Source: Candidatus Omnitrophota bacterium
Lineage (GTDB): Bacteria; Omnitrophota; Gorgyraeia; B26-G9
Direction of reading: 5' to 3'
Length of the DNA stretch: 64,000 nucleotides
Assembly: GCA_018813905.1 (NCBI GenBank)
Contig: JAHJAO010000086.1
Location: forward strand, 702 to 64,701
Shown one piece after another: positions 398 through 30,062 of the stretch (the first letter of the stretch is position 1; the number at the start of each line of letters is the position of its first letter). Below the pieces are notes generated by a model, which worked only from the letters and a program-made list of their open reading frames with translations, searched no databases and was not told where the DNA came from. The position numbers and the translations under genes were made by a program.

Positions 398-1936
398 CTA
401 CAATCTTATCCTGCGCGCGGCTTTGGTTTTGAACAAAAACCGGTTGATAACGTTAAGATACGCCTTGACGGAAGCTTCAATAATATCGGTGCTGGCAGCT
501 CTACCGGAAATCTCCTGCTTCGCCACCTTTAATTTTATATTCACTTCACCCAAAGCGTCTTTTCCGGAAGTTATCGCTTGAATGGAATAATCAATTAATT
601 TCGCCCGGATTTTGGTAATCTTTTCAATCGCCCTGTAGCAGGCATCCACCGGGCCGTCGCCGTAAGAGGTCGCCTCGTACGCCTTATTCTTCTTCCCAAG
701 GCAAACGGTGGCCTGCGGGTTGATTTGCGTGCCGCCGCAGAATTTAAAACTTTTAATCGCCCAAACCCGGGGCAGTTCTTTCATCTGTTCTTCCACGATA
801 GAAATCAAATCTTCCTCGAAAATCTCTTTTTTCTTATCCGCGAGCTTTTTGAACCGGCCAAACGCGTTTTCAAGCTGCTGCTTATTTAGTTTAAAGCCCA
901 ACAGTTTCAGCCGTTCAATTAGGGCGTGCCGGCCGGAATGTTTGCCCAGAACAAGCCCCTCTCCGTAAAAGCCGACATCTTCGGGCCGGATAATTTCATA
1001 GGTCTGTCTTTTTTTTAACACTCCGTCCTGATGAATTCCGGATTCGTGGCGGAAGGCATTACCTCCGACAATCGCCTTGTTCGGGGCGACAACAAAACCG
1101 GTTAACTTGCTCACCAGGCGGCTGGTTTTGTAAATCTGTTTTGTGTCGATACCAGTTGTTTTGCCTTCAAAAAATTCCTTTCGGGTATTCAAGCTCAAAA
1201 CAAGTTCTTCAAGCGCGGCGTTTCCCGCGCGTTCGCCGATGCCGTTGACCGTGCATTCTACTTGTCTTGCTCCGTTCTTTATCGCGCCTAGAGAATTCGC
1301 CACGGCCAGCCCTAAATCATTATGGCAGTGTACGGATATTATCGCCCGGGAAATATTGGGCACATTATTACAAATCGCCCGGATAAGTTCGCCGAACTCG
1401 CCCGGCTGCGCGTACCCTACGGTATCCGGGATATTCACCGTGGTCGCGCCGGCGTCAATTACCTCTTCAATAACGCGGAACAAAAACTCTCTTTCGGTGC
1501 GCGACGCATCCTCGGGTGAAAATTCGATATCGTTACAAAAACGGCGCGCGTACTTTACCGCCGCCTGCGCGATCTTTATTATTTCCGCCTCGGCCTTTTT
1601 CAATTTGTATTTCATGTGGATTTTGGAGGTGGCCAAAAATACGTGGATACGCTTTCTCTTTGCCGGCGCGAGCGCCGCGGCCGCGGCGTCAATATCTTTA
1701 TTCAAAGACCGCGCCAAACCGCAAATCGTCGCTCCCTTTACCCTTCGGGCGATCTGCTTAACCGAATCAAAATCACCGGGTGACGATACCGGAAATCCGG
1801 CCTCGATAATATCGACGCCCAGGCGCACCAATTGATGGGCAACTTCTATCTTCTCCTGAACGCTCAGACTTGCCCCCGGCGCCTGCTCGCCGTCTCTTAA
1901 TGTCGTATCAAATATATATATTCTCTCGCCAGCCAT
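398..1936 (-). CDS. leuA: 2-isopropylmalate synthase (LeuA/CimA family)
   Basis: 512-aa ORF. N-terminus IYIFDTTLRDGEQAPGASL plus HCHNDLGLAVANSL are the DRE-TIM metallolyase motifs of LeuA. Has the C-terminal regulatory domain. Sits in the ilv context. Confidence 0.85.
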   Translation of the reverse strand: MAGERIYIFDTTLRDGEQAPGASLSVQEKIEVAHQLVRLGVDIIEAGFPVSSPGDFDSVKQIARRVKGATICGLARSLNKDIDAAAAALAPAKRKRIHVFLATSKIHMKYKLKKAEAEIIKIAQAAVKYARRFCNDIEFSPEDASRTEREFLFRVIEEVIDAGATTVNIPDTVGYAQPGEFGELIRAICNNVPNISRAIISVHCHNDLGLAVANSLGAIKNGARQVECTVNGIGERAGNAALEELVLSLNTRKEFFEGKTTGIDTKQIYKTSRLVSKLTGFVVAPNKAIVGGNAFRHESGIHQDGVLKKRQTYEIIRPEDVGFYGEGLVLGKHSGRHALIERLKLLGFKLNKQQLENAFGRFKKLADKKKEIFEEDLISIVEEQMKELPRVWAIKSFKFCGGTQINPQATVCLGKKNKAYEATSYGDGPVDACYRAIEKITKIRAKLIDYSIQAITSGKDALGEVNIKLKVAKQEISGRAASTDIIEASVKAYLNVINRFLFKTKAARRIRL

Positions 1937-1942
1937 TTTATT

Positions 1943-2962
<1,020 letters not shown>

Positions 2963-2973
2963 TTATTAACAAA

Positions 2974-4047
2974 TTATCTTTGTTCTTCTGCTCTCTTGAC
3001 TAACGTGTTTAATTCCTCTTCATCCAGCGTATGTTTTAATGCCTCGGCGTAACTGATTTTACCTTTTTCCACCAGCTCGCTTAAAGACTGGTTCATGGTT
3101 TTCATACCGTATTTTCTTCCCGTCTGAACCAGGGAATATATTTGATGGAGCTGGTTTTCCCGGATTAAATTTTGAATCGCCGGCATAACCGTCATCACTT
3201 CCGTCGCCAGGCACCGGCCGGTACCGCGCACGTCGGGAACAAGCTTTTGCACGAGCACGCCGATCAAGACCAAAGAAAGCTGTACTCTAATCTGCTGCTG
3301 CTGATAAGCCGGAAAAACATCCACGATCCGGGTAATAGAATGGGTACAGCTACCGGTATGCAGCGTCGCCAAAATCAGGTGCCCGGTTTCCGCCAGCGTC
3401 AACGCCGCCTGAATCGTTTCCAAATCTCTCATCTCGCCGATAACGACAATATCCGGATCCTGACGGAACACGTGCTTAAGCGCCTCCTGATATGAAAGCG
3501 TATCCGTTCCCAACTGCCTCTGGTTTATCGTGCTTAAATTGTGTTTATGCAAATACTCTATGGGGTCTTCGATCGCAATAATATGCGCGTGCCTTTTCTT
3601 GTTTATATAATTTATTATCGCCGCCTGCGTGGTTGATTTACCGCTGCCGGTCGCGCCGGTTATCAATACTAAGCCGCTGGGCTTATCCGCATAGTCTTTT
3701 ACAATCTCCGGCAGCGTCAATTCTTCAATCGTCGGGATGCGAAACGGAATAACTCTCGCGGCCATGGCAATAGAATCGCGCTGGTAATAGAGATTTATGC
3801 GGAACCGGCTGAGGTCACGAATCCCCCAGGAAAAATCCAGCTCTTTTTCCCGTTCAAACCGTTCAATCTGCTCTTTTGTCAATATATCGTAACACATGCT
3901 TTTAATATCTTGCGGCGAAAGCGGCTCAAAATCGGTATAAATAAGGTTACCCGCTACTCGCAACTGCGGCGCAATACCAACGGTAAGATGCAGGTCCGAA
4001 GCTCCCTTTTCTACGATTAACCGCAAAAGCTGTTCGATATTCAGCAT
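2974..4047 (-). CDS. pilT: type IV pilus retraction ATPase PilT (PilT/PilU family)
   Basis: 357 aa. Walker A GATGSGKSTT, typical PilT N-terminal domain and His box. Sits between ilvN and ilvC. Confidence 0.85.
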   Translation of the reverse strand: MLNIEQLLRLIVEKGASDLHLTVGIAPQLRVAGNLIYTDFEPLSPQDIKSMCYDILTKEQIERFEREKELDFSWGIRDLSRFRINLYYQRDSIAMAARVIPFRIPTIEELTLPEIVKDYADKPSGLVLITGATGSGKSTTQAAIINYINKKRHAHIIAIEDPIEYLHKHNLSTINQRQLGTDTLSYQEALKHVFRQDPDIVVIGEMRDLETIQAALTLAETGHLILATLHTGSCTHSITRIVDVFPAYQQQQIRVQLSLVLIGVLVQKLVPDVRGTGRCLATEVMTVMPAIQNLIRENQLHQIYSLVQTGRKYGMKTMNQSLSELVEKGKISYAEALKHTLDEEELNTLVKRAEEQR

Positions 4048-4569: not shown

Positions 4570-6243
4570 TTATGCCATTCCGCCAATCATTCTATTTATC
4601 GCTTCACCCGCCGGAACCATGGGAAAAACATTTTCTTCCTCTTCCACAACAAAGTCGATAAACACCACATTCGGCGCGGCGATCGCCTCTTCAATTGCTT
4701 TTTCTACGTCCTGCTTTTTCTCGACGCGGAGACCTAACGCCCCGTAACTTTCGGCCAGTTTCACAAAATCCGGGTTCAGCAGCTTTGTATGCGAATACCT
4801 CTTTTTATAAAACAGCTCCTGCCATTGCCGCACCATGCCCAGATACCCGTTATTGAGAATAGCGACTTTAACATTAATTTTGCTCGCAATGGCGGTGGCG
4901 AGTTCCTGGATATTCATTTGAATCGAGCCGTCGCCGGCGATATCAAACACTACCTTATCCGGCCGGCCGATTTTCGCGCCGATAGCGGCCGGGAATCCGT
5001 AGCCCATGGTCCCCAACCCGCCGGAAGAGATGAACGTACGCGGCTTGGTATATGTATAATACTGGGCCGCCCACATCTGGTTCTGGCCCACTTCCGTACA
5101 GATAATCGCGTCTCCCTTGGTTGCTTTATAAATCTGCTCGACCGCATACTGCGGAGTTATTTTATCCCCTTTATCTTTATAGGTGAGCGGGTAACGCCGC
5201 TTCCATTCCCTAATCCGCTCAAGCCATTCTTTTGTCTGTCCCGCTTTTACCAGGCGATTCAGTTTAACCAATACGTTTTTAACATCGCCCACGATGGGAA
5301 CATGCACATGCACGTTCTTGCTTATCGCGGTGGGGTCGATATCGATATGGATAATTTTTGCGTGCGGCGCGAATTCGTCAATCTTACCGGTTACGCGGTC
5401 GTCAAAACGCGCGCCAATAGCAATAATCAAATCGCTTTCCATAACCGCATGGTTGGCGTAGACCGTTCCGTGCATGCCCAGCATCCCTAAGGACAAATCA
5501 TTATCCTCGGGGAATCCGCCCAGGCCCATTAACGTCGTCGTCACCGGCGCTTGAACCTTTATCGCCAGCTCCAACAGCTCTTCGGACGCGCCGCTGATAA
5601 TCACCCCGCCCCCGGCATAGATTATCGGCCGCTTGCTCTGATTGATTAATTTAGCCGCTTTTTTTATCTGGCCCGGATGGCCTTCGAGCGTCGGCTGGTA
5701 AGAACGGATACACACCGTATGCGGATAATTAAATTCCGCCAACTGCATCTGTACGTCTACCGGCACATCAATCACCACCGGCCCCGGCCGGCCGGTAGAA
5801 GCGATATGAAACGCTTCCTTAATCGTGCAGGCCAGTTCGGATATATCTTTCACCAGATAGTTATGCTTGGTTATCGGCCGGGTTATGCCCGTAACATCCG
5901 CTTCCTGAAAAGCATCATTGCCGATGAGGAATGTTTTTACCTGGCCCGTTATTGCCACCATCGGTATTGAATCCATATGCGCCGTAGCCAGTCCCGTTAC
6001 CAGATTCGTCGCGCCCGGGCCAGAGGTAGCAATACAAACGCCCACTTTACCGGTCGCGCGCGCATATCCGTCGGCGGCATGCGCCGCGCCCTGTTCATGC
6101 CGGACAAGCACAAAATCCAAAGGCGCATCGTAGAGCGCGTCAAACAGCGGCAATACCGAACCGCCGGGAAATCCAAAAACCACGCGCACACCTTCTTTAA
6201 GCAGAGATTCAATCAGAATCTGCGCTCCGTTTTTCTTTTCCAT
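4570..6243 (-). CDS. ilvB: acetolactate synthase large subunit (ThDP-dependent)
   Basis: 557 aa. ThDP-binding GDGS...N motif, FAD domain, typical AHAS N-terminus. Followed by ilvN. Confidence 0.9.
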
Positions 6244-6254
6244 AACCTATTTCC

Positions 6255-7925
6255 TTATTTTTCCAGTACCGCACCGAAACTGGCGGAACTAACCATTTTA
6301 GCGTAGCGTTTTAACCAGCCCTTGTTAATTTTAGGAGCGGGGTGCCTGACTTTTTTTAAGCGCTGGAATAAATCGTGCTTGGTGATTAATAATTCCAGCT
6401 TTCTCCTTTTTATATCGATAAGGATCCGGTCCCCGTTTTTAATCGCCGAAATCGGCCCGTCGGACGCGGCTTCCGGAGAAATATGGCCAATGCACGGCCC
6501 GCGCGTACCGCCGGAAAACCGTCCGTCGGTAATTAAAGCCACATCCTGCGCCAGCCCCATACCCATAATCGCGGCCGTGGGCGCAAGCATTTCTCTCATG
6601 CCCGGGCCTCCTTTGGGCCCTTCATACCGCACAACCAGCACCGACCCTTTCCTCACCCGGCCGGCTAAAATATCTTTCATCACCGCTTCTTCGCTGTTAT
6701 ACACGCAAGCCCGGCCCTTAAAGCACATCATTTTCCGGCTCACGGCCGTCTGCTTTACGACCGCGCCTTCCGGCGCCAGATTCCCGAACAGTATCGCCAT
6801 ACCGCCTTCTTGATGGTAAGCGCGTTTAAGCGGCCGGATAACATCCTCATCAAAAATCTCCGCTTCCGCGGCAATCTGCTTTATTTTCTTTCCGGAAACC
6901 GTAAGGTTGTCCTGCAGTTTTTCCTTCAAGCGTTTTAACACCGCGGGTATTCCGCCGGCAAATTCCAAGTCCTCCATAAAATATTCCCCGCCCGGACGTA
7001 AATCCGTAATATGCGGAGTGGACTTGCTGATCTGGTCAAACCGGCCTAAAGACAAGTCGATATTGCATTCGTTCGCAATCGCCAGAAGATGCAAAATCGT
7101 ATTGCTCGAACCGCCCAAAGCCATATCCACGCGGATAGCGTTTTCCAGAGATTTCTTGTTCATGATCTTTAACGCGCTTGTTTTATTTTTTACAAGCTGG
7201 ACAATTCTCTCCCCGCTCGCCTGCGCGATCCGTTTTTTCTTCGCCATGCCCGCAAGCCCCGTCGCGCACCCCGGCAGCGACATGCCCATGGCTTCGGTAA
7301 TACAGGCCATGGTATTCGCCGTATATAATCCCTGACACGAGCCCTGGCCCGGGCAGGCCTCCATCTCCAGGCACGAAAGCTCCTTGTTTGTAATCTCGCC
7401 CTTTTTTGCTTTTGCCAAAGCCTCGAACGTATCCCGCACAAAAGATAACCGCTTCATCTTGTACCGGCCGGATAACATCGGGCCGGCGGTAACGATTATC
7501 ACCGGGATATCCAACCGGGCCGCGGCCATAAGCATCGCCGGCGTTATCTTATCGCAATTAGTCAGGCAAACCAGCCCGTCGACACAATGCGCTTTGACCA
7601 CGGACTCGATACAGTCCGCGATTAACTCCCGCGACGCCAGCGGATAATGCATGCCCTCATGCCCCATGGCAATACCGTCACATATTCCCGGCACGCCAAA
7701 GAAAAACGGCACTCCGCCCTGGCTGCAAATACCGCGTTCGATAAACCGTTCCAAATCCCGCATGCCCACATGTCCGGGTATAAAATCGCTAAAAGAAGTA
7801 GCTACGGCAATAAAGGGCTTATTCATGTCCGGCCGGGAAATCCCCGTACCGAACAAAAGCGCCCGGTGCGGAGCACGTTCATACCCTTTGGTTATCTTTT
7901 CGCTTTTTAACATCATCATAACCAC
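6255..7925 (-). CDS. ilvD: dihydroxy-acid dehydratase
   Basis: 556 aa. RAPHRALL N-terminal motif, [15 protein letters not shown] and Fe-S ligand cysteines of the IlvD/EDD family. Confidence 0.9.
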
Positions 7926-7967
7926 CCCTTTTTTTAAAAAGATATAACGCCTTAAATAGAGTACCGA

Positions 7968-8783
7968 TTACTGATTAACCAGGATATTTATCTTGCCAAT
8001 TTTCTCGGTTAGCGCCTCTAAAGCCGTCCCGATAACCATGCCCGGCATAATTTCCTCTATCCCGGCGCGCATTGCGTGCCCGGGCAAAGACGACGTAACC
8101 AGCAAATCCCCTTTTTGTATGGGCCCGTTTTCCGCGGTTACCTTGCAGGAAACAATCCCGGCCAGGGCCACGGCTTGACTGTCCGCAGCCGCACCTAAGA
8201 GCAGCCGGGGATTTTCGGAAATCACGCCCGCAACTTTCGTGTCAAATTTATGTACAGAACGGGTTACGGTCAGCTCTTCCTGCTCGCTGATGACCACGAC
8301 ATCGGCAACAGCCGCTTCTTTCGCCCGCATGCCTTCGGCAATATCATATACGTGTTTTCCCGCAATCGGCGGAGAATTCGTATCCGGAGGAAAGCCTTCC
8401 ATTGTAATCCTATTCGCGGTCGTCAAGTTAAGCAATTGCCCATTTCCGGTATAGAAGTCAATACTGTAAGCGCCCGAGCCCACTCCGGCAGAACTGATAT
8501 TGGTCATATCAATACCGCCCGCACAAGTAAGCGCGTATAAGTACGAGCGGCCAGCCGGGTCAAGATAATATGCGGCATTCTCCAGGTCCTGAAAAATATG
8601 TGTTCTTATTTTATTATAAGCCGCAACTGCATACTGAATCCTGTATGTTTTTATGGCAATTGTTTTCTGGCTTCCGGCTTGCGCAAAACAAACCGGGTCC
8701 GTTATAACCCACTCTATGCCTAAGGCGATAAATAATACGATAAATATCCGATACATTATATGCTTTTTTACTGCTCTTTTCAT
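7968..8783 (-). CDS. exported protein of unknown family, paralog B of a tandem pair (signal peptide)
   Basis: 271 aa. N-terminal signal peptide. Shares PIAGKHVYDIAE, VAGVISENP.L.LG and LAGIV.CKVTAENGPI..GDLLVTSSL.G.AMRA blocks with the upstream paralog. 4-bp overlap with it. Confidence 0.6.
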   Translation of the reverse strand: MKRAVKKHIMYRIFIVLFIALGIEWVITDPVCFAQAGSQKTIAIKTYRIQYAVAAYNKIRTHIFQDLENAAYYLDPAGRSYLYALTCAGGIDMTNISSAGVGSGAYSIDFYTGNGQLLNLTTANRITMEGFPPDTNSPPIAGKHVYDIAEGMRAKEAAVADVVVISEQEELTVTRSVHKFDTKVAGVISENPRLLLGAAADSQAVALAGIVSCKVTAENGPIQKGDLLVTSSLPGHAMRAGIEEIMPGMVIGTALEALTEKIGKINILVNQ

Positions 8784-9598
8784 TGCTTATTTACCAGGAT
8801 AAATATTTTTCCTTTGCCTTCTGTATGCGGCTGTAACGCCTTGCCCAGCAGCATACCCGGTTTTATCTGCCCGGCCGCGGCGCGCATAGCATACCCGGCT
8901 AAAGATGAAGTTACCAGCAAATCTCCGTTTTTAATCGGCCCGTTCTCGGCGGTTACCTTGCATTTAACAATACCTGCCAACGCCAGCGGCAGCTCTCCTT
9001 CGCCTTGGCCCAGGCATAACTTTGGGTCCTCGGAAATGACCCCGGCAACGCGAGTATCATACGGGATTTGAGACCTGGCCAGGACACAGTCTTTGTCCTG
9101 GCTGATAACGACGGTATCGCCGGGCTGGCAATCCTTCGCGCTGATAGATTCGGCAATATCATATACGTGTTTTCCCGCAATCGGCGGGTTTGTGCCTCCC
9201 GGAGTTGCGGCGCCCATGGTAATCCTGTTTTGCACGGTCAAATTATTCAAGTACGCTCCGCCGCTTGAGAAATTAATACTGTATCCAGAAGCAGTTGATC
9301 CGATCATCGGCGTGTTAATGCCCGTAGCTATCTGAAGCTCCCGCATTTGGCTTGTGCCGTTGGGGTCAACCTTATAAGCCTGGTCGTCATAATCAAGCAG
9401 TACTCTTGCCTTTAAAGTAGTAAACTCGCCGAACGGAAACGGGTAAAACGTGGTTAAGGTAATCTGTTCCGGCGGGGATTGGGATATTGCCGATACCGAA
9501 TAGATAAGTAAACCCGCCAATACCAGCACAAAAAAAAGCAGCACATATTCCCAATTAACTTTTTTCGTGTTTTCGCGCGTTTGTTTAATTATGGACAT
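8780..9598 (-). CDS. membrane-anchored or exported protein of unknown family, paralog A of a tandem pair
   Basis: Start set at ATG 9598 (AGGAGG SD 8 nt upstream; track ORF begins earlier at 9676). 272 aa. N-terminal hydrophobic anchor VLLFFVLVLAGLLIY. Conserved C-terminal ~130-aa region shared with paralog B. Confidence 0.6.
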   Translation of the reverse strand: MSIIKQTRENTKKVNWEYVLLFFVLVLAGLLIYSVSAISQSPPEQITLTTFYPFPFGEFTTLKARVLLDYDDQAYKVDPNGTSQMRELQIATGINTPMIGSTASGYSINFSSGGAYLNNLTVQNRITMGAATPGGTNPPIAGKHVYDIAESISAKDCQPGDTVVISQDKDCVLARSQIPYDTRVAGVISEDPKLCLGQGEGELPLALAGIVKCKVTAENGPIKNGDLLVTSSLAGYAMRAAAGQIKPGMLLGKALQPHTEGKGKIFILVNKQ

Positions 9599-9678
9599 AA
9601 ATATCCGCCTCCTGAACTTTAAAATTAAACAGCTGTTTTCAAAGCCAACCCGCGTTTTATCTATTTCTTCCGGCAAAA

Positions 9679-10011
9679 TTACCGCCAGTTAGACACGATT
9701 GCCGTTATCCTCAACCCGGAAGGCACGTTTTCCTGGGCCAAGCTCACCTGGAGCCAATTGCCGACACCAAATAAATATTCGAGATTGAAACTATCGGTAC
9801 ACGCGGTACCGTTATAAAGCTCGGTAATACGGTGAACCAGGCCCGCTTCGGCGGCATAATAGCCCTGGGCGTGGTTGAGCTGATACACTACGGCTTGATT
9901 AAAACCGGCGGCGTAATACATAATCGCCACCGCGCAAATCGAAACCACCCCGATATAAACAAAGACCATAATCATCGCCTGCGCTCGGTTATTCTTATCC
10001 AACTTTTTCAT
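9679..10011 (-). CDS. PilX-like type IV pilus minor component (N-terminal PilX-type hydrophobic domain)
   Basis: 110 aa. N-terminal hydrophobic segment followed by AQGYYAAEAG, resembling the PilX N-terminal domain. Adjacent to two prepilin genes. Confidence 0.5.
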   Translation of the reverse strand: MKKLDKNNRAQAMIMVFVYIGVVSICAVAIMYYAAGFNQAVVYQLNHAQGYYAAEAGLVHRITELYNGTACTDSFNLEYLFGVGNWLQVSLAQENVPSGLRITAIVSNWR

Positions 10012-10069
10012 TTTTAACTCGTATCTTTTTAACTTATAACTTATAATTTGTAATTTATAACTCTAAATT

Positions 10070-10807
10070 TCACCAGTTATCATTAGTAGGTCCGCCGGCC
10101 CAGGGTTCGCAGGTATCTGCAGGCGCGCACCTTAAATTCAAAACCGTATATATCTTGGCTACAGTGTATTCACCGGACACCGGCTCAAGGACTTTACCTG
10201 TAACCTCTAATTCCACCATCAACGCATTAAAACTGATTTTACGAAAATCCAGTTTGCTCACGTTTCGGGCAACGACAAAACCAGCGCTCTGGTTCGGCGC
10301 AATCGGCCCAATTGCGCTCTCGATACGAATTTCTCCCGTACTTGAATGGTATTGAATAAGTGTTATCTGATCATCGGTATAATCATCGGCCTGGGGGTCA
10401 ACCGCCGGGCCTAAAAAATCCGGCTGCTCGTCCTGGCGCAGGTATAAACAAACCGGATCATACCCGCCCCACCAGCTACTCGATATAATCTCAGTTCCCA
10501 AGGTCGGCATATCGGGGAAAGCGCTTAAATCCGTACCGCCGGCACTATAAACACTATTGGCCGGCGGAGACCAGGTTGGGCCCTGCACCCAGCCGTAGCG
10601 GTTCGCCTTCATTACTTCCTGGCTGATTGCCTTCATTGCCGATTGGGCGTTAGAATAAACCGTAAACGCGTCCTGCATAAACCGCAGGGAATTCAAAGCA
10701 AAATAAAAAATCACGCCGGTCGCGACCAGTAAAACCATCATGATTACCGCGCCGATTTGCAGCTCGATTAACGTCAATCCTTTTTGTCTATTATGCTTAT
10801 TGATCAT
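10070..10807 (-). CDS. prepilin-type minor pilin/pseudopilin (PilW/GspJ-like)
   Basis: 245 aa. N-terminus KGLTLIELQIGAVIMMVLL is the class III signal G|xTLIE with Glu at +5. Start overlaps the stop of the upstream pilin by 1 nt. Confidence 0.7.
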   Translation of the reverse strand: MINKHNRQKGLTLIELQIGAVIMMVLLVATGVIFYFALNSLRFMQDAFTVYSNAQSAMKAISQEVMKANRYGWVQGPTWSPPANSVYSAGGTDLSAFPDMPTLGTEIISSSWWGGYDPVCLYLRQDEQPDFLGPAVDPQADDYTDDQITLIQYHSSTGEIRIESAIGPIAPNQSAGFVVARNVSKLDFRKISFNALMVELEVTGKVLEPVSGEYTVAKIYTVLNLRCAPADTCEPWAGGPTNDNW

Positions 10808-11115
10808 TATTCTGTCCAGTTAACATTTACCGTAACCAACTGCATGGCTCCTAAATTGGTTACAGTTTCCGGGCGGGTAGCGTTTTTTGAGATCGTTATT
10901 GCGCTCGGTAAATTCTGTGTAAGACACCCCGCCCTTATTTCTTCTAATCTCGCCTGCGCCCAGAATACGGCCATGGATTTATGAAAACCCATGGCCACGA
11001 CATCGCGTGAATTCTTATACACCGCGAATAATCCGGCCAAAAGTATGGTCAAAATCATCGCGGAAATAATAACCTCAATAAGCGATAACCCCTTACAATT
11101 TAACAACTTCTTCAT
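10807..11115 (-). CDS. prepilin-type minor pilin/pseudopilin (PilV/GspI-like)
   Basis: 102 aa. N-terminus KGLSLIEVIISAMILTILLAGLF is the prepilin peptidase cleavage/methylation motif with E+5. Confidence 0.75.
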   Translation of the reverse strand: MKKLLNCKGLSLIEVIISAMILTILLAGLFAVYKNSRDVVAMGFHKSMAVFWAQARLEEIRAGCLTQNLPSAITISKNATRPETVTNLGAMQLVTVNVNWTE

Positions 11116-11161
11116 AAAAAAAACCTCTAGACGTTAAATTATAACACCCGTGTCTTCAATG

Positions 11162-12151
11162 TCAATCTCTTTTAAAGAACCGCGGTATTCGTTCGCTTAT
11201 CGCGCAGGAAATTTCATAAGGGATGGTGGAGCAAATTTTGGCCAAATCTTCAGCGCTCACCCGCTTCTTACCTGCCGCGCCGATTAGAATCACCTCATCG
11301 CCTATCTTTACCTTCGGGATATGCCCGACATCAACCATGATCTGGTCCATGCACACCCGGCCGATAACCCGAGCATATTTGTTGCGGATTATAACTTTTG
11401 CGCGGTTAGAAAGAGCGCGCATATAGCCGTCCGCATAGCCGACAGCCACGGTAGCAACACGGGTATTTGCGCGCGCGGTAAAGGTGCGGCCGTAACTTAT
11501 GCTGCGGCCGGCCGCTACATCTTTTAAATAGACAATCCGGCTTTTAAAACTCAATACCGGCTTTAAATCAAAAAATTCTTCTAAATTTTTGTGCGGATAC
11601 ATCCCGTAAAGCATAATTCCCGGCCGCACCATATTTAAAGACAAATCACGCAGCCTGCCTACGGCGCTGCTGTTGGAAGCGTGCTTGAACGGGATCTCTA
11701 TTTTTTTTGCCTTTAAGCGGCGCAGTAATCCTTCAAAAATTTCTACCTGTTTTCCCGTAAACGCCATGTCCGTATCCGCGCTGGAAAAATGCGTGTACAG
11801 CCCCTCGATAAATATCCGGTTAAGTTTTGCAACTTTCACAATAAAATCTTCCGCCGCCGTATGCCAGACGCCGATGCGGCCCATGCCCGTATCAATTTTT
11901 ATATGCACCGGAACTTTCTTCTTTCCCAACAGCCGCGCCCAGCGGTCTAAAAGCCGTGCCGTGCGGTAATCCGGCACGGTAACGCGAACATTCAATTTTA
12001 ACGCCTGCTTGATTTCAGAGGAAGAAAACATCGCCCCTAAAATCAAAATGGGCGTTTTGAGGCCGGCGCGTTTTAAAACCTGCGCCTCTTCCGTATTCGC
12101 CACGCCCAGGTAATCCGCTCCGCAATATGCGAGTATTTTCGCCGTTTCCAC
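11162..12151 (-). CDS. alr: alanine racemase, main frame (residues after the PLP-Lys region); N-terminal 24 codons lie in another frame
   Basis: 329-aa ORF (GTG in track) with alanine racemase C-terminal barrel motifs. Manual back-translation shows the in-frame upstream sequence KKIVGKNIKILAPVKANAYGHG (PLP lysine motif) runs to a stop at 12221-12223. Confidence 0.8.
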   Translation of the reverse strand: METAKILAYCGADYLGVANTEEAQVLKRAGLKTPILILGAMFSSSEIKQALKLNVRVTVPDYRTARLLDRWARLLGKKKVPVHIKIDTGMGRIGVWHTAAEDFIVKVAKLNRIFIEGLYTHFSSADTDMAFTGKQVEIFEGLLRRLKAKKIEIPFKHASNSSAVGRLRDLSLNMVRPGIMLYGMYPHKNLEEFFDLKPVLSFKSRIVYLKDVAAGRSISYGRTFTARANTRVATVAVGYADGYMRALSNRAKVIIRNKYARVIGRVCMDQIMVDVGHIPKVKIGDEVILIGAAGKKRVSAEDLAKICSTIPYEISCAISERIPRFFKRD

Positions 12152-12293
12152 TATCCCATGGCCGTAAGCGTTGGCCTTTACCGGGGCCAGAATTTTTATG
12201 TTTTTTCCGACAATTTTTTTTTACCTGATGGAAATTATAAACTAAATTCCTCAAATTTATCTCGACCCAGGTTCGCTTATCTTTATTTTTCAT
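12015..12293 (-). pseudogene. alr: alr 5' segment in alternate frame (MKNKDKRTWVEINLRNLVYNFHQVKK), then out-of-frame read-through
   Basis: The first 26 codons match the alanine racemase N-terminus. The frame departs from the main alr frame at an A9 run (T9 on the plus strand, 12214-12222). Deleting one A restores a continuous Alr. Confidence 0.6.
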
Positions 12294-13000
12294 GCTTTTA
12301 CCCGTTTCTTTTTACTTTGAACCGTACAGGTATCCGGATAAAGGTATAACGCCGAGACGAAATCCGCGCGTTCCGCTTTGCCTGCCTGGCACCGGTTAAG
12401 ACATGCCTGCGCCAAAGCCTGTGCGTTCGGAAACCAAAAATCCGCCTTTGCCAGGGTGAATTTGCGCGTTATCAGCCGTTTGAGGTCCTGCTCGTATAAA
12501 CCCGCGCCGTCACCCGTAAAAACAATATCCTTTTTATACCTCGCTATTTTTTTCAAAAACCCCCCGAGTTTGCCCAGATAATAACCGGTTATCCGGACGG
12601 GATTTCCGGACCGGTTTTCATAAAGCGCGGCGTATACCTGCCCTCTTTTCGCGTCAATAACCGGGCAGATCAAGCCGCTGGTTTTATTTTTAAGCCCCCA
12701 GGCCAGAATATCCAGGCTGGGAACACCGGCAATCTTTACGCCTAAAGCCAACCCTAACCCCTTTACCAAAGCGATGCCGATACGGATACCCGTAAACGAT
12801 CCCGGGCCGATATCAACGCCCAAGAACCTTATATCATTTATCCGGATGCGGGCTCTTTTGAGCAGCCGTCCGATTTCATCCGGTAAAAGCTGCGCGTGCG
12901 CTTTTTCTCTTTCTTTGCGGCAAACCGCGATTACCTTACCCTGCCTGGCCAAGACCGCGCACAAAAATTTTGTAGACGTATCAATACCCAAAAATACCAT
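12290..13000 (-). CDS. tsaB: tRNA threonylcarbamoyladenosine biosynthesis protein TsaB
   Basis: 236 aa. LGIDTSTKFLCAVLA N-terminus (inactive Kae1/YeaZ fold). Adjacent to tsaE. Confidence 0.8.
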   Translation of the reverse strand: MVFLGIDTSTKFLCAVLARQGKVIAVCRKEREKAHAQLLPDEIGRLLKRARIRINDIRFLGVDIGPGSFTGIRIGIALVKGLGLALGVKIAGVPSLDILAWGLKNKTSGLICPVIDAKRGQVYAALYENRSGNPVRITGYYLGKLGGFLKKIARYKKDIVFTGDGAGLYEQDLKRLITRKFTLAKADFWFPNAQALAQACLNRCQAGKAERADFVSALYLYPDTCTVQSKKKRVKA

Positions 13001-15531: not shown

Positions 15532-16491
15532 CTAGTGTTTATTATTAGCGTTTCTCTGCTGGTACACCACTTGCTTAAACCGCTCAAGGTCGACTTTGCG
15601 GCCCCAGATATTAGTCTGGTCCCGGCCTAATCTCTTGGACTGATAAAGAGCGACATCGGCTTGGGCAATCATTTCATCCACCACCATCGATCCGCCGTCT
15701 AAAAACGAACTAATGCCGCAGCTGAAAGTAACTTTTATAGAATGCTGAGGCGCGCCTAAATCTTTTTCCTTAACGATTATTCTTAGCCGTTCCATTAAGA
15801 TATAAGCGCCTTCATATCCGGTTTCAAGAAGCACCAACCCAAATTCATCGCCGCCAAAGCGGCAAATAATATCCGTAGAACGCATATTGCACCGCAATAC
15901 CGAAGCCACGCCCTTTATGACTTTATCCCCGACCGGGTGCCCGTAAGTATCGTTTATGTTTTTGAAATGGTCAATATCCACGATTACGCCGCAAAAATCC
16001 CGTTTATACCTGCGGCCCCGTTCAAATTCGTCGGCAAGCCGCTGCTGAAAATAGCGGCGGTTATAAATATAAGTAAGGCTGTCAATAACGGTAAGGCGGA
16101 ATAAGTCGTCATACACCTTTTTTAATTTTAAAAGATTTTTAATCCGCAAGAGTAATTCCCGTTCGTCCCCGCCCTTGGTCAGAAAATCAGAAGCGCCCAG
16201 TTCCAAACCCAGTAATTTATTATCGAGGTTGCCGCTGGAAGTAAGAAAAAGGATCGGCAAACTCGCCAGGTTTTCATTCTGCCGGATGCGTTTACAGATT
16301 TCGAAGCCGTCCATACCCGGAAGATATATATCCAAAATCACCAAATCCGGCGTTTCTTTTTCCAGCGCCGGCAGCACAAGTTCGCCCTTATCGATATGGG
16401 TTACTCTATAATTCGGTTCTTTATCCAGGCTCTTCTTTAAACGCTCAAAATCATTTTTATCGTCTTCCACTACCAGAATTTTGGCTTTCAC
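15532..16491 (-). CDS. response regulator with receiver domain and GGDEF diguanylate cyclase domain
   Basis: 319 aa. REC domain (ILVVEDD...LVILDIYLPGMDG) followed by an intact GGDEF (RFGGDEF) motif. Confidence 0.85.
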   Translation of the reverse strand: MKAKILVVEDDKNDFERLKKSLDKEPNYRVTHIDKGELVLPALEKETPDLVILDIYLPGMDGFEICKRIRQNENLASLPILFLTSSGNLDNKLLGLELGASDFLTKGGDERELLLRIKNLLKLKKVYDDLFRLTVIDSLTYIYNRRYFQQRLADEFERGRRYKRDFCGVIVDIDHFKNINDTYGHPVGDKVIKGVASVLRCNMRSTDIICRFGGDEFGLVLLETGYEGAYILMERLRIIVKEKDLGAPQHSIKVTFSCGISSFLDGGSMVVDEMIAQADVALYQSKRLGRDQTNIWGRKVDLERFKQVVYQQRNANNKH

Positions 16492-24847: not shown

Positions 24848-26035
24848 TCATATTGCTTGTTCCACAAACACCATATTGGCAGATAATCCGCTTTGGGTCT
24901 TTATGCTGAACAGGTCTTTTATTTGCTCCAAAGCAGCGTTGTGGCCATAAACACTATTATCCAGCATAACCGGAAGTCCTAAGTTTATATAGTGCTCGAT
25001 TAACCGTTGCTGCGCCGAATAGGCGGCGGAAGATTCAAAAGTAAACAATCGGCGCAAAAATTTATCCATGAGCAGCGTTAATCTCTCTCCGACATAAGTG
25101 CTGTAGGGCAGATTATCCTTTTCCGCGGCCGGGCCATAGTACGCCCGCTTGGCCAGGCGGTGATAGGCCCAGGCGAAAAATTCGGAAGCGATGCTAAACG
25201 GCGGGTTTTGATATTCAGCCAAAATATTTCTCAAACCCGCGCCGGTTAAGTTAAAAAACATTTTTTGCCCCAGGTCGAAGTCGACTTCGATACCGCCCCA
25301 CGCCACTGTATAAGAAAATCGCGGCAGCTGATTACCGAAAAATTTCAACATCAAGCCTTCCGCCTCAACCTTAGTTATATTTCCTTTTATAAAATCGTTT
25401 ATGACGATACCCGGATAATTATACTGGAAACGCAATAACTGTTTAATCTCCATAAAGATATTCCATAACTCTTTATCCTGCGCATAGTACAGATCAGCCT
25501 CGATCCTATTAAAATCCTGGATAAAACTTATCTCCTTATCTACCGGCCGGCGGCTTCTATAAACGGCAATATGTCCGGCATGCACGGCCTCATGCGTCAT
25601 GCGTTCATGTAAACTGATCTCATCCGCGCCTTTGGCGAAAATCCAGATATTCAAGTGCGCATCAAAGCAACCGACGGTTGTCGGATGAAATCCTTTTTTC
25701 AAAATAAACTCCTGCCACCATAACTCATCATAGATAAAGTTTACGTTCGCGCCTTTTTTCTGCGCGATCCTACGGTAAAAATCCACGTTGTCCGGCACCC
25801 CAAACAAAGAAGAACCGTTTGTATCTTCTGCCCGGCGTGATCGTTGCGGAGCAGCGGTTATTATGGAAAATTCAGCCTTATTTATCGCTGCCTGTTGAAA
25901 AGGCGCTTGAAACTGCTGGTAAGCGATTTGCAGCGCCGGCGCAAGATAGTCTCCTCTGGCCCAAGCTGTTGGGCAAAGTAAAACTCCCGGCAAAAGCAAC
26001 ACGGCTATAATTTTAAAAACTAATTTATTATTCAT
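24848..26035 (-). CDS. secreted protein with HEXXH zinc-metallopeptidase-like motif, family unknown
   Basis: 395 aa. N-terminal signal peptide (KIIAVLLLPGVLLCPTAWA). Internal HERMTHEAVHAGH (HEXXH + downstream H). No other domain recognised. Confidence 0.55.
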   Translation of the reverse strand: MNNKLVFKIIAVLLLPGVLLCPTAWARGDYLAPALQIAYQQFQAPFQQAAINKAEFSIITAAPQRSRRAEDTNGSSLFGVPDNVDFYRRIAQKKGANVNFIYDELWWQEFILKKGFHPTTVGCFDAHLNIWIFAKGADEISLHERMTHEAVHAGHIAVYRSRRPVDKEISFIQDFNRIEADLYYAQDKELWNIFMEIKQLLRFQYNYPGIVINDFIKGNITKVEAEGLMLKFFGNQLPRFSYTVAWGGIEVDFDLGQKMFFNLTGAGLRNILAEYQNPPFSIASEFFAWAYHRLAKRAYYGPAAEKDNLPYSTYVGERLTLLMDKFLRRLFTFESSAAYSAQQRLIEHYINLGLPVMLDNSVYGHNAALEQIKDLFSIKTQSGLSANMVFVEQAI

Positions 26036-26077
26036 ATCCTGAATGTAATTTTGAAACTATAAAAAGTGTTAAAGTAT

Positions 26078-26106
26078 ACCACAAGAAATTGGTCTTGGCA
26101 AGCAAA
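26078..26106 (-). promoter_or_regulatory. candidate sigma70 promoter (TTGCCA-N17-TATACT) for the HEXXH-protein gene
   Basis: On the minus strand: -35 TTGCCA (26101-26106), 17-nt spacer, -10 TATACT (26078-26083), about 45 nt upstream of the ATG at 26035. Confidence 0.5.
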
Positions 26107-26203
26107 GCGGTACTTAGAACCTAGGGCGGGTTACTTATCTTAACTTATTGATATAAAATGAGTTATGGATGAGCAAGGCCTGTTTTATATCCAGCCGCCT
26201 AAC

Positions 26204-26264
26204 TCCAATATGCGCATGTGCACGGTATTATTTTCCGTTATCTTGACGTGCGCTTGTTGGCCGA
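26204..26264. repeat. 61-bp perfect direct repeat, copy 1 (orphan duplicate of the cupin gene 3' end; homology with mismatches extends to ~26186-26273)
   Basis: tccaatatgcgcatgtgcacggtattattttccgttatcttgacgtgcgcttgttggccga is identical to 30105-30165. On the minus strand it encodes VGQQAHVKITENNTVHMRILELGGWI*, against the cupin gene's ...LGQQAHVKITENNTVHMRILELDEWIPAKSKRGLK*. Confidence 0.9.
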
Positions 26265-26304
26265 CATAAAACTGCGGGGGTTATTTGGACACCAAATATG
26301 ATAA

Positions 26305-27537
26305 TTATTCAACGCTGGAAATATTGATATCTTTTACTCTCGTATTTTCCAAGCTAACATTAAGCGCAATCTCTTTCCTTAAAGGTTCATTCTTAAAATC
26401 ATAAATCAGAACATCTTTATATGTTATTGCCGCAGGGGTTTTAGAAACCTTTAATTTTTCCGGTAATATCGTTTTTATATCAGAAATGTCCATTCCTTTA
26501 TATACCCTTCCATAAAAAGTATAGACTTCACTGACCGGTTTTTCTTTATAATGCTTTTTAACCAGTTTCTCTCCTGTCAATAGCAAATAATCTTCTTTAA
26601 ATTCTTCTTTATAACAAAATTCTTTCATCGATGTTCTTTCTATATGATTTTTCTCGCCTACATAAAATTTTGACTTTTCTTTGACAAACATACTTTCTTT
26701 TATATAGTTTTCTATCTTTTTTATCCTGTCAGGCACGGGGGGATGTGTTGAAAAATATCTTACGAGCAGTCCTACAGTCGCTCTTGCCGTATCTCCAACT
26801 GGCGTAATTGGTTCAAAAAATTCTCCTTTAGATAATTCCTTTTCAAAGATACGTTTAAAGACAGAAACAGCAGCTAAAGGATGATATCCCGCTTTGTAGG
26901 CCAAATATACTCCTCCCAAATCCGCCTCCGTTTCCTGAAATTCAGAGTATCCAGTTTTTAAAAAAATTTGGTAGCCGATATCCACATAAGTATCTAAATC
27001 CATCACCCCTATAATTTTTTCCAACCTAATTTTATATTGAATTGCTCCAATACAATGCTTTGCGTCAACATGCACTATCTCGTGCCCTAAGATAGCTGCT
27101 AGTTCTGCTTCGGATTTGAGTTGAGCGATTAACCCCATTGAGATATAAATATGCCCTCCGGGAAGCGCAAACGCTTCCGGATAGAAACTATCTAAGATAT
27201 GGGTTTTATAATTAATTTTTTTTCTCTTTACGTTTTTACAAATTATCTGTGCCACCTCATCTATATATTTATGTATTGGGGTATTATTAAACTTTTCTTT
27301 TCCATAAGAAACGCTAATTTTCTTATGTATTTTATTTCCGACCTCCATTTCTTCTTCATCGGTTAAAGAAGTTAAAATATGCCCGGCCTTGTCCGCATGA
27401 TGCAAGATACTTTCAACAAACTCGGAAACCGAATTAAAACTCACTTTATCCGAAGGATTGCCTTTAATCATAATAAATGCAATCGCCAGAATGCTGACTA
27501 ATAAACTAACCGCTAAATAAACATTCCTTAGTTTCAT
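26305..27537 (-). CDS. M48-family zinc metalloprotease (BepA/YfgC/HtpX-like), N-terminal membrane anchor
   Basis: 410 aa. N-terminal TM helix. ILGHEIVHVDAKH matches the M48 HEXXH..H consensus (cf. BepA AHEISHVTQRH). Markedly AT-rich relative to its neighbours. Confidence 0.75.
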   Translation of the reverse strand: MKLRNVYLAVSLLVSILAIAFIMIKGNPSDKVSFNSVSEFVESILHHADKAGHILTSLTDEEEMEVGNKIHKKISVSYGKEKFNNTPIHKYIDEVAQIICKNVKRKKINYKTHILDSFYPEAFALPGGHIYISMGLIAQLKSEAELAAILGHEIVHVDAKHCIGAIQYKIRLEKIIGVMDLDTYVDIGYQIFLKTGYSEFQETEADLGGVYLAYKAGYHPLAAVSVFKRIFEKELSKGEFFEPITPVGDTARATVGLLVRYFSTHPPVPDRIKKIENYIKESMFVKEKSKFYVGEKNHIERTSMKEFCYKEEFKEDYLLLTGEKLVKKHYKEKPVSEVYTFYGRVYKGMDISDIKTILPEKLKVSKTPAAITYKDVLIYDFKNEPLRKEIALNVSLENTRVKDINISSVE

Positions 27538-27548
27538 AAAAACTTCTA

Positions 27549-30062
27549 TTATATAAACTTTTTGATTGTATCTTTATATTTCGTATAAATAAATGAGACG
27601 AAAAGCAATATCGCACCCAGCGCTATTAAAGACAATATGTAATGTAACGTGGATAGTTGTCTCAAATCAATCAAAAACGCTTTTAATAACGTTCCGAACA
27701 AAATTATAAGCCCATATATACGCCAATTTTTGTCTTTAAACCCAAACCCAAACAAAAATAGCAATAATCCCTCTGTCCCCAAACCGATAGTTAACATTAC
27801 CCCGCTTAATTTTACCATCAAAATCGTCGTTAAGAGAATAGTTGCCGATAAACCAAAAACAAATCTCGGCCAATATAAAAACTTCCTTATAAGCCCTCTT
27901 TTTAATTCTGTAACATTTTCGATTATTTGCCTGGCAGTCAAATAGATAAAATTACCGGCGTACAAAGCCCCTACGGTAATACTTGAAAAAAACATATCGC
28001 CGGTCATCCCTACCAGATATTTTTCCTGCAAAACATTGACAAAAATAGCTCTTAATGCGGCGGCGATTGCGGCGATTGAACTGATAGCAAGATAACAGTG
28101 TTTTTTTGATCTTATCGCGATGAATGAATATATTAAGGCGATAATTCCCCATGCAGCTGCGACAACATGCTTAGGTGCTTCAGCTCTCGTTAAAAACATG
28201 ATGCTGCCAAAAATTAAATAATGATAAACTATCCCCATCTTTTTTTCCGCTTCGTTTAATATCGCCTTTATTTTTTCGTCATTTAAAAGCATGACGCAAT
28301 AGTAAAAAAGCATGATGACGGGTGTTACACTCAAAATTCGATAACTAATCCCTCCGATCTCACCGTCAATGGACATATTGGACATGAGCAGCCTTAGAAA
28401 ACTTCCTACTCCCAACACAAAACCTTGCAACCTTTGATAATTCGTATTATTCGAAATCCCCAATCGCAATAAGATAACTCCTAATATCATCCAAGCCGGA
28501 GCTGTCAAAACTTTTGGCAAATCAAGCCATGTTCCCAGCACGTAGATAATAATATAAGCGTAAGAAATTATTGGCGGATGACTCTTTTCCTTTTCGATAA
28601 GCATTTTTTTTCTTTCAAGACGTTGATACGCGAGATAGTCGATTAAATAGGCAACCGCCGCAAAACATAAGAAAAGAATCCGTTTACTTAAATGATAACT
28701 TAACGGTATGTTCTCTATTAAGGGGATATCGGCAAATAAAATTTTACCTAAAATCAGCATCAAAAAGCTAAATGAGAATATCCGCCAGTAAGGCTCTTTC
28801 AATACTATACCTGTCAAAAATACAACTTGTGCAAGAATGATGTAAGATACCGTAAGTTTATATCCCGCATATTCCAACGCTAAAAAGTAAGCTGTAAATA
28901 AGATGGAAAAGATAGAGCTGATCAAGCATAATTGTCTCTGCTTAAAACAATAAGAAATAATAGTGAGCATTAAATACAATCCTGCCCCAATTAATAATGC
29001 TGGTCGCACATACTCCATAAATCCGTTTTGCAGCAAAAAGTAAGTTAAAAACGCGACAACTACAGCATTAACGATGTGGGTCGCTTCTTTTATCCTGATA
29101 TATAAATTGTTATTGTCATTGTCCCGGATAAGAAACGTCGCTAAAACAAAAATTGCCCAGTAAAGGCCAAGGAATCCTATTGCCGTAAAAAATTGCGTTT
29201 TCCCTAAAATCACGCCCGGTGTTGGCGTAAACCAGCAAAGATAAGTAAAATACGTCATGGCCATTCCATATAAACCGAATTTTGCCCATTGCTCTTTAAC
29301 CAGAAAGAAAATGAGGGATAGAGCTACAAGGGTAGTCGCTAACATCGTGTACAGAGACAAAGGGGAAACCATCAAGGTTATAAACATTAAAAGGTATGAA
29401 AATACAGTTGCCAATTCCGATCTATATTTATATATGTGGGCTGCCGCCGCGAATGATACACCCAAGAGAAATACTATTCCGATCAAGGGGCTTTTTATTA
29501 ATTGGACATCGGCAATATGATGCATCGCGTATGTCGTAAAATACAATATTGCCCATGCACCACCAATTAAAGTTTTACCGTAAACAGAAAAGTTATTTTT
29601 CTTTTCAATTTTAGCCCCAAAAATAAGTATACCTAATCCGCTTACATATCCTATGGAAATTTTACCGACAGCCCCTAAATACTTGAAGGAATATCCAATT
29701 AAAAGGGCAATCCCGATTACAACCGCAAGAATACCCAGCTTATTGAATAATTTTCCACCTAAAATCTGTTCAAAATTCTCTATCCAGCTCTTTTTTTGTT
29801 TAGGTAATTCTGTTGTTGTTTGAAACTTTGGTTTTTCAGTTTTTTTTACCTCTTCTTTTTTTACGTCTTGCGGTTTTTCTTCTTTTGCAACTATTTGCTT
29901 GCCGCTTCTTATCTCCTCTATTTCTTTAAGAATCCTCTTTGCCTGGTTTTCCAATTGAGCGAGTCTATCTTCGCTGCCTAAAAGTTCTAGAGGAATCCTG
30001 CAAAGTAAACATACTCCCCATAAATCGCCATACTGCTTACCGCATTTTGGACACTCTTTCAT
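27549..30062 (-). CDS. large polytopic membrane protein with N-terminal zinc ribbon and coiled coil (DUF2339-like)
   Basis: 837 aa. MKECPKCGKQYGDLWGVCLLCRIP C4 ribbon, K/E-rich coiled-coil linker, then >20 predicted TM helices in repeated blocks. AT-rich. Start overlaps the cupin stop (ATGA). Confidence 0.65.
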   Translation of the reverse strand: MKECPKCGKQYGDLWGVCLLCRIPLELLGSEDRLAQLENQAKRILKEIEEIRSGKQIVAKEEKPQDVKKEEVKKTEKPKFQTTTELPKQKKSWIENFEQILGGKLFNKLGILAVVIGIALLIGYSFKYLGAVGKISIGYVSGLGILIFGAKIEKKNNFSVYGKTLIGGAWAILYFTTYAMHHIADVQLIKSPLIGIVFLLGVSFAAAAHIYKYRSELATVFSYLLMFITLMVSPLSLYTMLATTLVALSLIFFLVKEQWAKFGLYGMAMTYFTYLCWFTPTPGVILGKTQFFTAIGFLGLYWAIFVLATFLIRDNDNNNLYIRIKEATHIVNAVVVAFLTYFLLQNGFMEYVRPALLIGAGLYLMLTIISYCFKQRQLCLISSIFSILFTAYFLALEYAGYKLTVSYIILAQVVFLTGIVLKEPYWRIFSFSFLMLILGKILFADIPLIENIPLSYHLSKRILFLCFAAVAYLIDYLAYQRLERKKMLIEKEKSHPPIISYAYIIIYVLGTWLDLPKVLTAPAWMILGVILLRLGISNNTNYQRLQGFVLGVGSFLRLLMSNMSIDGEIGGISYRILSVTPVIMLFYYCVMLLNDEKIKAILNEAEKKMGIVYHYLIFGSIMFLTRAEAPKHVVAAAWGIIALIYSFIAIRSKKHCYLAISSIAAIAAALRAIFVNVLQEKYLVGMTGDMFFSSITVGALYAGNFIYLTARQIIENVTELKRGLIRKFLYWPRFVFGLSATILLTTILMVKLSGVMLTIGLGTEGLLLFLFGFGFKDKNWRIYGLIILFGTLLKAFLIDLRQLSTLHYILSLIALGAILLFVSFIYTKYKDTIKKFI

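Follow-up and report, generated by a model that had tools for sequence, protein, structure and literature searches.

Probable phage-tail-fibre-like pro-proteins encoded behind minor-pilin genes in Candidatus Omnitrophota and their possible place at the type IV pilus tip

Background

The domain at the C-terminus of the phage phi29 protein gp12 acts as an intramolecular chaperone that is cut off once folded (PMC3357383), and its fold, the beta-tulip, is usually trimeric (PMC7602432). A cellular counterpart is provided by the MAT fibres of the predatory bacterium Bdellovibrio, which are Sec-exported, phage-like trimeric proteins with a conserved N-terminal module and variable tips; 13 of the 21 end in a self-cleaving C-terminal chaperone, and their authors raise the possibility of an interplay between them and type IV pili (PMC10769870). 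Nearly all Omnitrophota have type IV pili, for which a role in host attachment has been proposed, and we found no tip proteins of the kind reported below described in that work (PMC10066038). Here we analyse two tandem genes, encoding proteins that we call A and B, in a stretch of 64,000 nucleotides of a Candidatus Omnitrophota genome (assembly GCA_018813905.1, contig JAHJAO010000086.1, positions 702 to 64,701), hereafter the window; unless stated otherwise, coordinates are those of the window. A preliminary description, made from the sequence alone, had singled out the two genes as tandem paralogues for exported proteins of an unknown family, located behind minor-pilin genes at the position usually held by PilY1-type tip proteins.

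Results

Protein A (type 1, 272 residues) is encoded at 8780-9598 and protein B (type 2, 271 residues) at 7968-8783, both on the minus strand and both, in our reading, putative pro-fibres. The preliminary description was right about their paralogy and about the 4-bp overlap, which joins the stop codon of A to the start codon of B at 8780-8783: BLASTP aligns the two proteins over 258 residues with 45% identity (E = 6e-72, well above chance), the C-terminal domains being 59% identical and the mature N-terminal parts 35%. The reading frame of A is open over 8780-9676 on the minus strand, its true start being the ATG at 9598; an AGGAGG sequence lies 9 nucleotides upstream of this codon, and the starts of the homologues coincide with it.

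At the level of sequence libraries the pair did prove to be without a family, as neither protein had a match in Pfam, NCBIfam, PHROGs or the PDB sequences. This part of the earlier view had to be revised once structures and profiles were compared, since the C-terminal ~130 residues of A and B are remotely homologous to the autochaperone domain of phage tail spikes represented by phi29 gp12 (Peptidase_G2). In the AlphaFold2 model of B, residues ~150-270 have a predicted local distance difference test (pLDDT) score above 95, and the C-terminal domain of A and B shows the beta-tulip fold of the released gp12 C-terminal fragment. A comparison with the predicted viral structures of BFVD returned 41 viral matches, including a "preneck appendage protein" and tail-fibre proteins. 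With gp12, translated from the phi29 genome, as the reference for a profile-sequence comparison, hhalign aligned the domain alignment to it at an E-value of 1.7e-5 and a probability of 79%, pairing VAGVISENP..LG with gp12 IIGVISETAGFVLG and D147-I-A-E150 with D692-F-A-E695 of gp12. The relationship is visible through structure comparison and profile-profile alignment only; a profile search of the PDB sequences with the domain alignment returned nothing.

In gp12 the sequence around this motif reads ...TWS691|D692-F-A-E695, S691|D692 being the reported cleavage site; as a cross-check, the structure 3gqh_A comprises 163 residues, which equals 854 - 691, and the released gp12 fragment therefore starts at that Asp (D692). 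In the family studied here, the D and E of D-I-A-E occur without exception (49 of 49 homologues). The motif stands at the N-terminal boundary of the domain and, in nearly all of 120 homologues, 123-137 residues before the C-terminus. The autochaperone-like domain thus delimited covers residues 147-272 of A (nucleotides 9160-8783, minus strand, starting with D147-I-A-E150) and residues 147-271 of B (8345-7971, minus strand). Mean identity among the 49 homologues is 60% in this domain and 30% in the mature N-terminal part; such a conserved domain joined to a variable mature part fits an assembly module and not a receptor-binding tip. The conserved C-terminal domain is probably a discarded assembly module and not the pilus-binding or adhesive part.

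Two further contexts bear on the role of the domain. In the jumbo phage PA5oct, a virion protein detected by mass spectrometry ends in the same domain, with the motif Y-A-D-L-A-E, and its gene adjoins a tail-fibre gene. On a Gemmatimonadaceae contig (DASWGU010000193; locus L025), two paralogous fibres, encoded at 1698-3371 and 4877-6625 of that contig, have their first ~330 residues in common (49% identity), whereas at the C-terminal end one of them carries the gp12-like domain and its paralogue the chaperone of endosialidases (Pfam Peptidase_S74); two paralogous prepilin genes are located immediately upstream of the first fibre. This exchange of one domain for the other is the strongest contextual argument for a role as fibre-assembly chaperone. 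S74 also replaces the G2-like domain in a second protein (P0171), and A and B themselves have no match to the Pfam S74 family (PF13884, S-D-x-x-x-K motif).

Beta-tulip decoration proteins are uncleaved trimers that bind their target via an N-terminal arm (PMC7602432), and the domain of A and B might likewise stay in place, as a trimeric knob forming the distal head of a protein that is still located at the pilus tip and holds on to the pilins by its N-terminal arm. We consider this unlikely, because the invariant D-x-A-E falls exactly on the domain boundary and is aligned to the gp12 cleavage site, because the S74 chaperone, which cleaves, can take the place of the domain, and because a receptor-binding head would be expected to vary, yet the domain is the most conserved part of the protein.

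The N-terminal export signals noted in the preliminary description were recovered as Sec-type signal peptides in both proteins, spanning residues 1-39 of A (nucleotides 9598-9482, minus strand) and residues 1-34 of B (8783-8682, minus strand). Each ends in a small-x-small site immediately preceding a Gln that is present in 49 of 49 homologues, the predicted cleavage sites being A-I-S|Q40 in A and C-F-A|Q35 in B. Cleavage is placed after the hydrophobic core; the class III signal of type IV (pseudo)pilins, in which a hydrophobic helix comes after G|F-T-L-I-E, is absent from A and B, as is an N_methyl match. Type-1 signal peptides, in the window (9598-9482) as in the homologues, carry a conserved N-[KR]-E-Y before the hydrophobic core, which is unusual for a Sec n-region. 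That N-K-E-Y might be a Flp/Tad or prepilin signal was considered and rejected, as no Gly stands at the appropriate distance, the type-2 proteins lack the motif, and the fusion proteins described below have the segment deleted.

The mature part covers residues 40-146 of A (nucleotides 9481-9161, minus strand), where it starts with QSPPEQ-ITLTTFYPFPFGEF, and residues 35-146 of B (8681-8346, minus strand), where the N-terminal motif takes the degenerate form IAIKTYRIQYAVAAY. This motif, I-T-L-T-T-F/Y-Y-P-x-P-F-G-x-F/Y, opens the mature part a few residues past the Gln and also begins longer proteins that share the C-terminal domain of A and B. It is followed by a fibre repeat unit (F-x-D-x-D-N...D-P-S-G-x-S-x-L; profile positions ~45-100), of which giant fibre proteins, one of them S74-terminated, contain 15-22 copies. 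With a putative docking motif, a single repeat unit and a chaperone domain, A and B therefore have the look of minimal fibres. Database searches started with the N-terminal half of A and with the PilX-like protein encoded upstream found, respectively, a near-identical copy only and 2 proteins only, the word pre-filter being too strict for such variable sequences.

A and B are the last members of a five-gene unit in the order pilV-like, pilW-like, pilX-like, A, B, which agrees with the position and strand first reported for them. The PilV/GspI-like minor (pseudo)pilin (10807-11115, minus strand; 102 residues; prepilin site KG|LSLIEV) matches Pfam N_methyl (1.4e-5) and the NCBIfam prepilin cleavage/methylation domain TIGR02532 above their cut-offs, with weak matches to PilV and GspI. 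The PilW/GspJ-like minor pilin (10070-10807, minus strand; 245 residues; prepilin site KG|LTLIEL), whose gene overlaps the previous one by 1 bp, matches N_methyl slightly under the cut-off (5.7e-4) and has orthologues at every syntenic locus. The PilX/GspK-like tip pseudopilin (9679-10011, minus strand; 110 residues) lacks Glu5 in its hydrophobic N-terminus (NRAQAMIMVFVY) and carries a YAAEAGL motif as well as the conserved C-terminal end VSNWR; PilX_N is the top or sole Pfam match of its orthologues, below the cut-off (1.7e-4 at locus L003 and 5.7e-3 at L002). Two features of the unit were counted in favour of pilus association. One is the translational coupling of A and B; the other is a promoter-like site (11138-11165, minus strand; TTGACA-16 nucleotides-TATAAT with a TG extension, 12 of 12 consensus matches), the sole perfect match in 7700-12300, which is situated after the end of alr and before the start of the pilV-like gene as a candidate promoter of the unit's own. 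Outside the operon and amid ilv genes, a gene at 2974-4047 (minus strand) encodes a PilT-like retraction ATPase with the motif GATGSGKST; its orthologues match Pfam T2SSE, and its position is kept in all syntenic loci.

Gene contexts and tblastn revealed a strictly conserved block, mtnA-thiL-tsaE-tsaB-alr-pilV-pilW-pilX-(2 or 3 paralogues)-(ilvD)-ilvB-ilvN-pilT-ilvC-leuA, which is followed, in the three loci that extend further (L001-L003), by aroE and a prepilin peptidase gene (A24 domains). Three minor-pilin-like genes directly precede two or three tandem paralogues in all adequately flanked short-form loci of Omnitrophota, and a rearranged locus encoding a long form (L021) also has pilin genes directly upstream. 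Identity to the window is 75-86% for the flanking housekeeping genes and 30-50% for the pilins and fibre paralogues, so that the latter evolve fast. The location of the pilT-like gene between ilvN and ilvC, and with it the interleaving of pilus and amino-acid-biosynthesis genes, is conserved across Omnitrophota. Such synteny effectively refutes the idea of A and B as leftover tail-fibre genes of a prophage without a cellular role, which their fold and their repeat unit, both of the phage tail-fibre type, could suggest: the genes occupy a conserved chromosomal slot between alr and ilvD in many species, no other phage genes are present in the 64 kb, and Sec signal peptides and intact reading frames have been kept despite long divergence.

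Evidence for a link to the pilus also comes from three in-frame fusions of a PilX-like protein to a fibre (P0073, 368 residues; an open reading frame at locus L016, 386 residues; and P0132, 383 residues). They show mutual identities of 71% and 37% and have in common both the junction and the operon position. At the junction, the PilX-like C-terminal VS(N/G)W is followed by ~10 residues and then by the mature N-terminal motif of the fibre, whose signal peptide is deleted; the fused partner is the first paralogue. The AlphaFold2 model of the fusion P0073 has a mean pLDDT of 64 and is confident at the N-terminal helix and the C-terminal domain only. These fusions also argue against A and B being cargo released by a type II secretion-like pseudopilus made of the three upstream pseudopilins, an interpretation suggested by the first pseudopilin, which matches GspI about as well as PilV, and by the Sec signal peptides, which A and B have like type II substrates. 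A covalent link to a pseudopilin would be senseless for a released protein, and the nearby ATPase is PilT-like, of the retraction type, and so indicates a true type IV pilus; we regard the secreted-cargo explanation as very improbable.

Metagenomes were scanned with a DNA pattern of the N-terminal motif, and 69 loci were returned. The motif was invariably located behind a signal peptide, while the C-terminal parts were very diverse (S74 in 6, tail-collar-like, Cys-rich heads). Among the 27 loci with at least 1.5 kb of upstream sequence, 8 had same-strand prepilin genes no more than 2.5 kb upstream, mostly three consecutive ones, and 4 further pilin-adjacent cases were seen on shorter contigs. 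Against a prepilin background at control loci of 0.005 per control window, this corresponds to a binomial P of about 1e-12. The adjoining pilins represent ~8 lineages at <60% identity, and since the window's PilW-like protein showed no BLASTP similarity to the pilin beside the L025 fibre, the pilin partners vary between lineages. On several metagenome contigs (L107, L138, L160, L118), proteins with I-T-L-T-T-Y-Y-P are often encoded in tandem arrays of 2-3 genes with differing C-terminal parts, resembling a cassette of alternative tips.

The same data bear on whether A and B could be envelope fibres anchored off the pilus, in the outer membrane, the peptidoglycan or a surface layer, their vicinity to pilin genes merely reflecting co-regulation or inherited order. 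Most relatives are indeed encoded away from pilin genes, the syntenic block of Omnitrophota was inherited as a single arrangement, and the analogous Bdellovibrio MAT fibres have no known anchor (PMC10769870). On the other side stand the three PilX-like fusions, retained across 37% identity, the enrichment of the motif beside strongly divergent pilin genes, and the need of a diderm for a route across the outer membrane, which a pilus supplies. On this evidence we judge off-pilus anchoring to be quite improbable.

A full-length search gave 183 matches, almost all of them in Candidatus Omnitrophota and often with adjacent locus tags. The C-terminal domain is far more widespread. Scanning one genome per species yielded 515 domain relatives, in Omnitrophota, Chloroflexota, Acidobacteriota, Gemmatimonadota, Bacteroidota, Planctomycetota, Patescibacteria and some archaea, and HMMER, run on 1.84 billion representatives, yielded 26,804 proteins with an E-value of 1e-3 or lower and 784 with one of 1e-30 or lower. 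Outside Omnitrophota, the domain is found at the end of secreted proteins of 340 to >5,000 residues with fibre-like N-terminal regions. Four giant proteins of 1,500-4,500 residues (P0144, P0160, P0162, P0150) have the gp12-like domain in an internal position, at times twice, and continue behind it with another domain and a long acidic tail; self-cleavage there would split the proteins. A 3.1-kb contig (L010, JAHJZF010000063) is a near copy of the window, with protein identities of 99% for ilvD, 94% for B and 92% for A, and its label "Patescibacteria group bacterium" probably results from faulty binning.

Core chromosome makes up the remainder of the window, with metG, holB, the aconitase gene, mdh, icd, rpoA, secY, adk, map and others. 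All genes identified in 1-64000 are on the minus strand and the GC skew stays negative from end to end; a single replication arm appears to hold the entire window. A response-regulator/GGDEF protein is encoded at 15532-16491, six genes upstream of the pilin operon, and relatives have one or two copies of this gene at the same place. The G+C content falls to 0.34-0.37, compared with about 0.46, in 26000-30000, a stretch that may be acquired DNA and that contains a Peptidase_M48 gene (26305-27537) and a gene for a large DUF2339 membrane protein (27549-30062). An open reading frame for 395 residues at 24848-26035 (minus strand) has no Pfam match.

Discussion

The reading that we favour, at a probability of roughly 0.55, is that the two genes encode the pro-forms of small phage-tail-fibre-like proteins, secreted and located at the tip of the Omnitrophota type IV pilus and probably equipped with a self-removing domain. 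From the homologies and gene contexts given above, we infer the following course. A and B would be exported by the Sec route and lose their signal peptide ahead of the invariant Gln. The C-terminal beta-tulip domain would serve as an intramolecular chaperone that aligns three chains, into homotrimers or A/B heterotrimers, and would then cleave itself off at Y146|D147, at the D-I-A-E motif, leaving ~110 residues per chain, namely the docking motif, one fibre repeat unit and a short beta segment. The mature N-terminus would dock on the minor-pilin tip complex, most likely beside the C-terminus of the PilX-like cap, and the mini-fibre would leave the cell through the secretin on the pilus tip, where it would probably act as a fast-evolving contact or adhesin element.

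A number of observations weigh against this reading; the point most open to doubt is cleavage and release of the domain in the periplasm. Self-cleavage and trimer formation are proposed here by homology, and release of the gp12 chaperone is reported by Xiang and colleagues (2009) to be ATP-dependent, ATP being absent from the periplasm. A and B have no match to Pfam Peptidase_G2 (PF11962), and the Peptidase_G2 model, which finds gp12 as a positive control at 2.6e-97, detects 2 of 31 domain sequences, at E 0.019; because it finds gp12 and misses the A/B family, the latter is best seen as a separate, unannotated branch. In many giant homologues the domain is internal or duplicated, and hence not a disposable end module in every case. 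As regards the pilus, Omnitrophota synteny spans everything from mtnA to leuA, so that pilin adjacency within this lineage amounts to a single inherited arrangement; ~70% of the motif-bearing proteins have no neighbouring pilin gene, and the motif may thus also dock on partners encoded elsewhere or on other structures; the motif is degenerate in the type-2 paralogue B; and the P0073 model is too poor to reveal a contact between PilX and fibre.

The preliminary description had proposed a novel pilus-associated pair and had regarded homologues lying mostly outside pilus loci as an argument to the contrary. That situation was in fact encountered for the C-terminal domain, prepilin-motif genes being near only 2 of ~62 non-Omnitrophota domain loci (~60 of 62 lie elsewhere), and not for the full-length short family. 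Association with the pilus holds, by synteny, fusions and enrichment of the N-terminal motif beside pilin genes, for the short Omnitrophota subfamily; the domain conserved between the two proteins is probably the assembly module that is discarded. It had also been suggested that the pair takes the slot of PilY1, which is correct for gene position and incorrect for the protein, the PilY1 domain and fold being absent.

Omnitrophota are ultra-small, uncultivated and thought to live on other cells, with type IV pili as the proposed attachment organ. If the mini-fibres are the tip element of these pili, they are likely host-recognition molecules, a role in keeping with how fast they evolve and with their changing copy number (2-3 paralogues). 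By joining the fibre to the PilX-like cap, the fusions define a concrete, testable point of contact between a pilus and a phage-type fibre, and such a contact could account for the anchoring of similar fibres, for instance the MAT fibres of Bdellovibrio. The domain itself is a very large family (~27,000 clusters at 50% identity) of probable self-cleaving chaperones unannotated in the domain libraries. A wider proposal, possible if on balance doubtful, is that I-T-L-T-T-Y-Y-P-x-P-x-G-x-Y is a general tag, set immediately behind the signal peptide, by which trimeric receptor-binding proteins of the phage-tail-fibre kind, with exchangeable tips and self-removing chaperones, dock on the minor-pilin tip of type IV pili, in Omnitrophota and several other uncultivated lineages. 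Were this true, it would describe a swappable set of pilus-tip fibres recognising hosts or prey, and the anchor of MAT-type predator fibres could be alike.

Comparison with known systems

The closest structural relative of the C-terminal domain of A and B is the phi29 gp12 autochaperone (Peptidase_G2, PDB 3GQH/3SUC), from which it differs in being shorter (~125 compared with 163 residues), chromosomally instead of phage-encoded, and exported to the periplasm. Peptidase_S74 of endosialidases and tail fibres has the same contextual role, as the C-terminal module of trimeric fibres, and is interchangeable with the A/B-type domain at L025 and in giant fibres with the same repeat unit; it is unrelated in sequence, however, and its catalytic motif is a Ser-Lys dyad. 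The beta-tulip capsid decoration proteins have the fold in common with the domain, whereas A and B are encoded in the chromosomal core and the window contains no capsid genes.

The Bdellovibrio MAT fibres (Caulton et al. 2024) are the closest cellular analogue, the comparison being one of architecture alone. Unlike A and B, they measure hundreds to ~1,000 residues, use S74 and have a ~130-residue beta-rich N-terminal domain, and pilin operons have not been reported for them.

On the pilus side, PilY1/PilC of type IVa pili resembles A and B in being a non-pilin, Sec-exported protein encoded directly after pilV-pilW-pilX and a presumed rider on the minor-pilin tip complex. PilY1 is a beta-propeller protein of >1,000 residues, in contrast to the ~270 residues and different fold of A and B, in which Pfam and NCBIfam detect no PilY1/PilC domain and the model shows a beta-tulip without a propeller. 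For a trimer at a pilus tip there is a precedent in CofB/TcpB, and for a pilin with an extra functional module in the modular pilins of Streptococcus sanguinis, which the PilX-like fusions resemble; these proteins have other folds and lack a chaperone domain, and the fibre of the window is a separate polypeptide. The phage-type self-processing fibre and the pilus-tip accessory protein are thus both already known as kinds of protein, and what is new at this locus is their combination.

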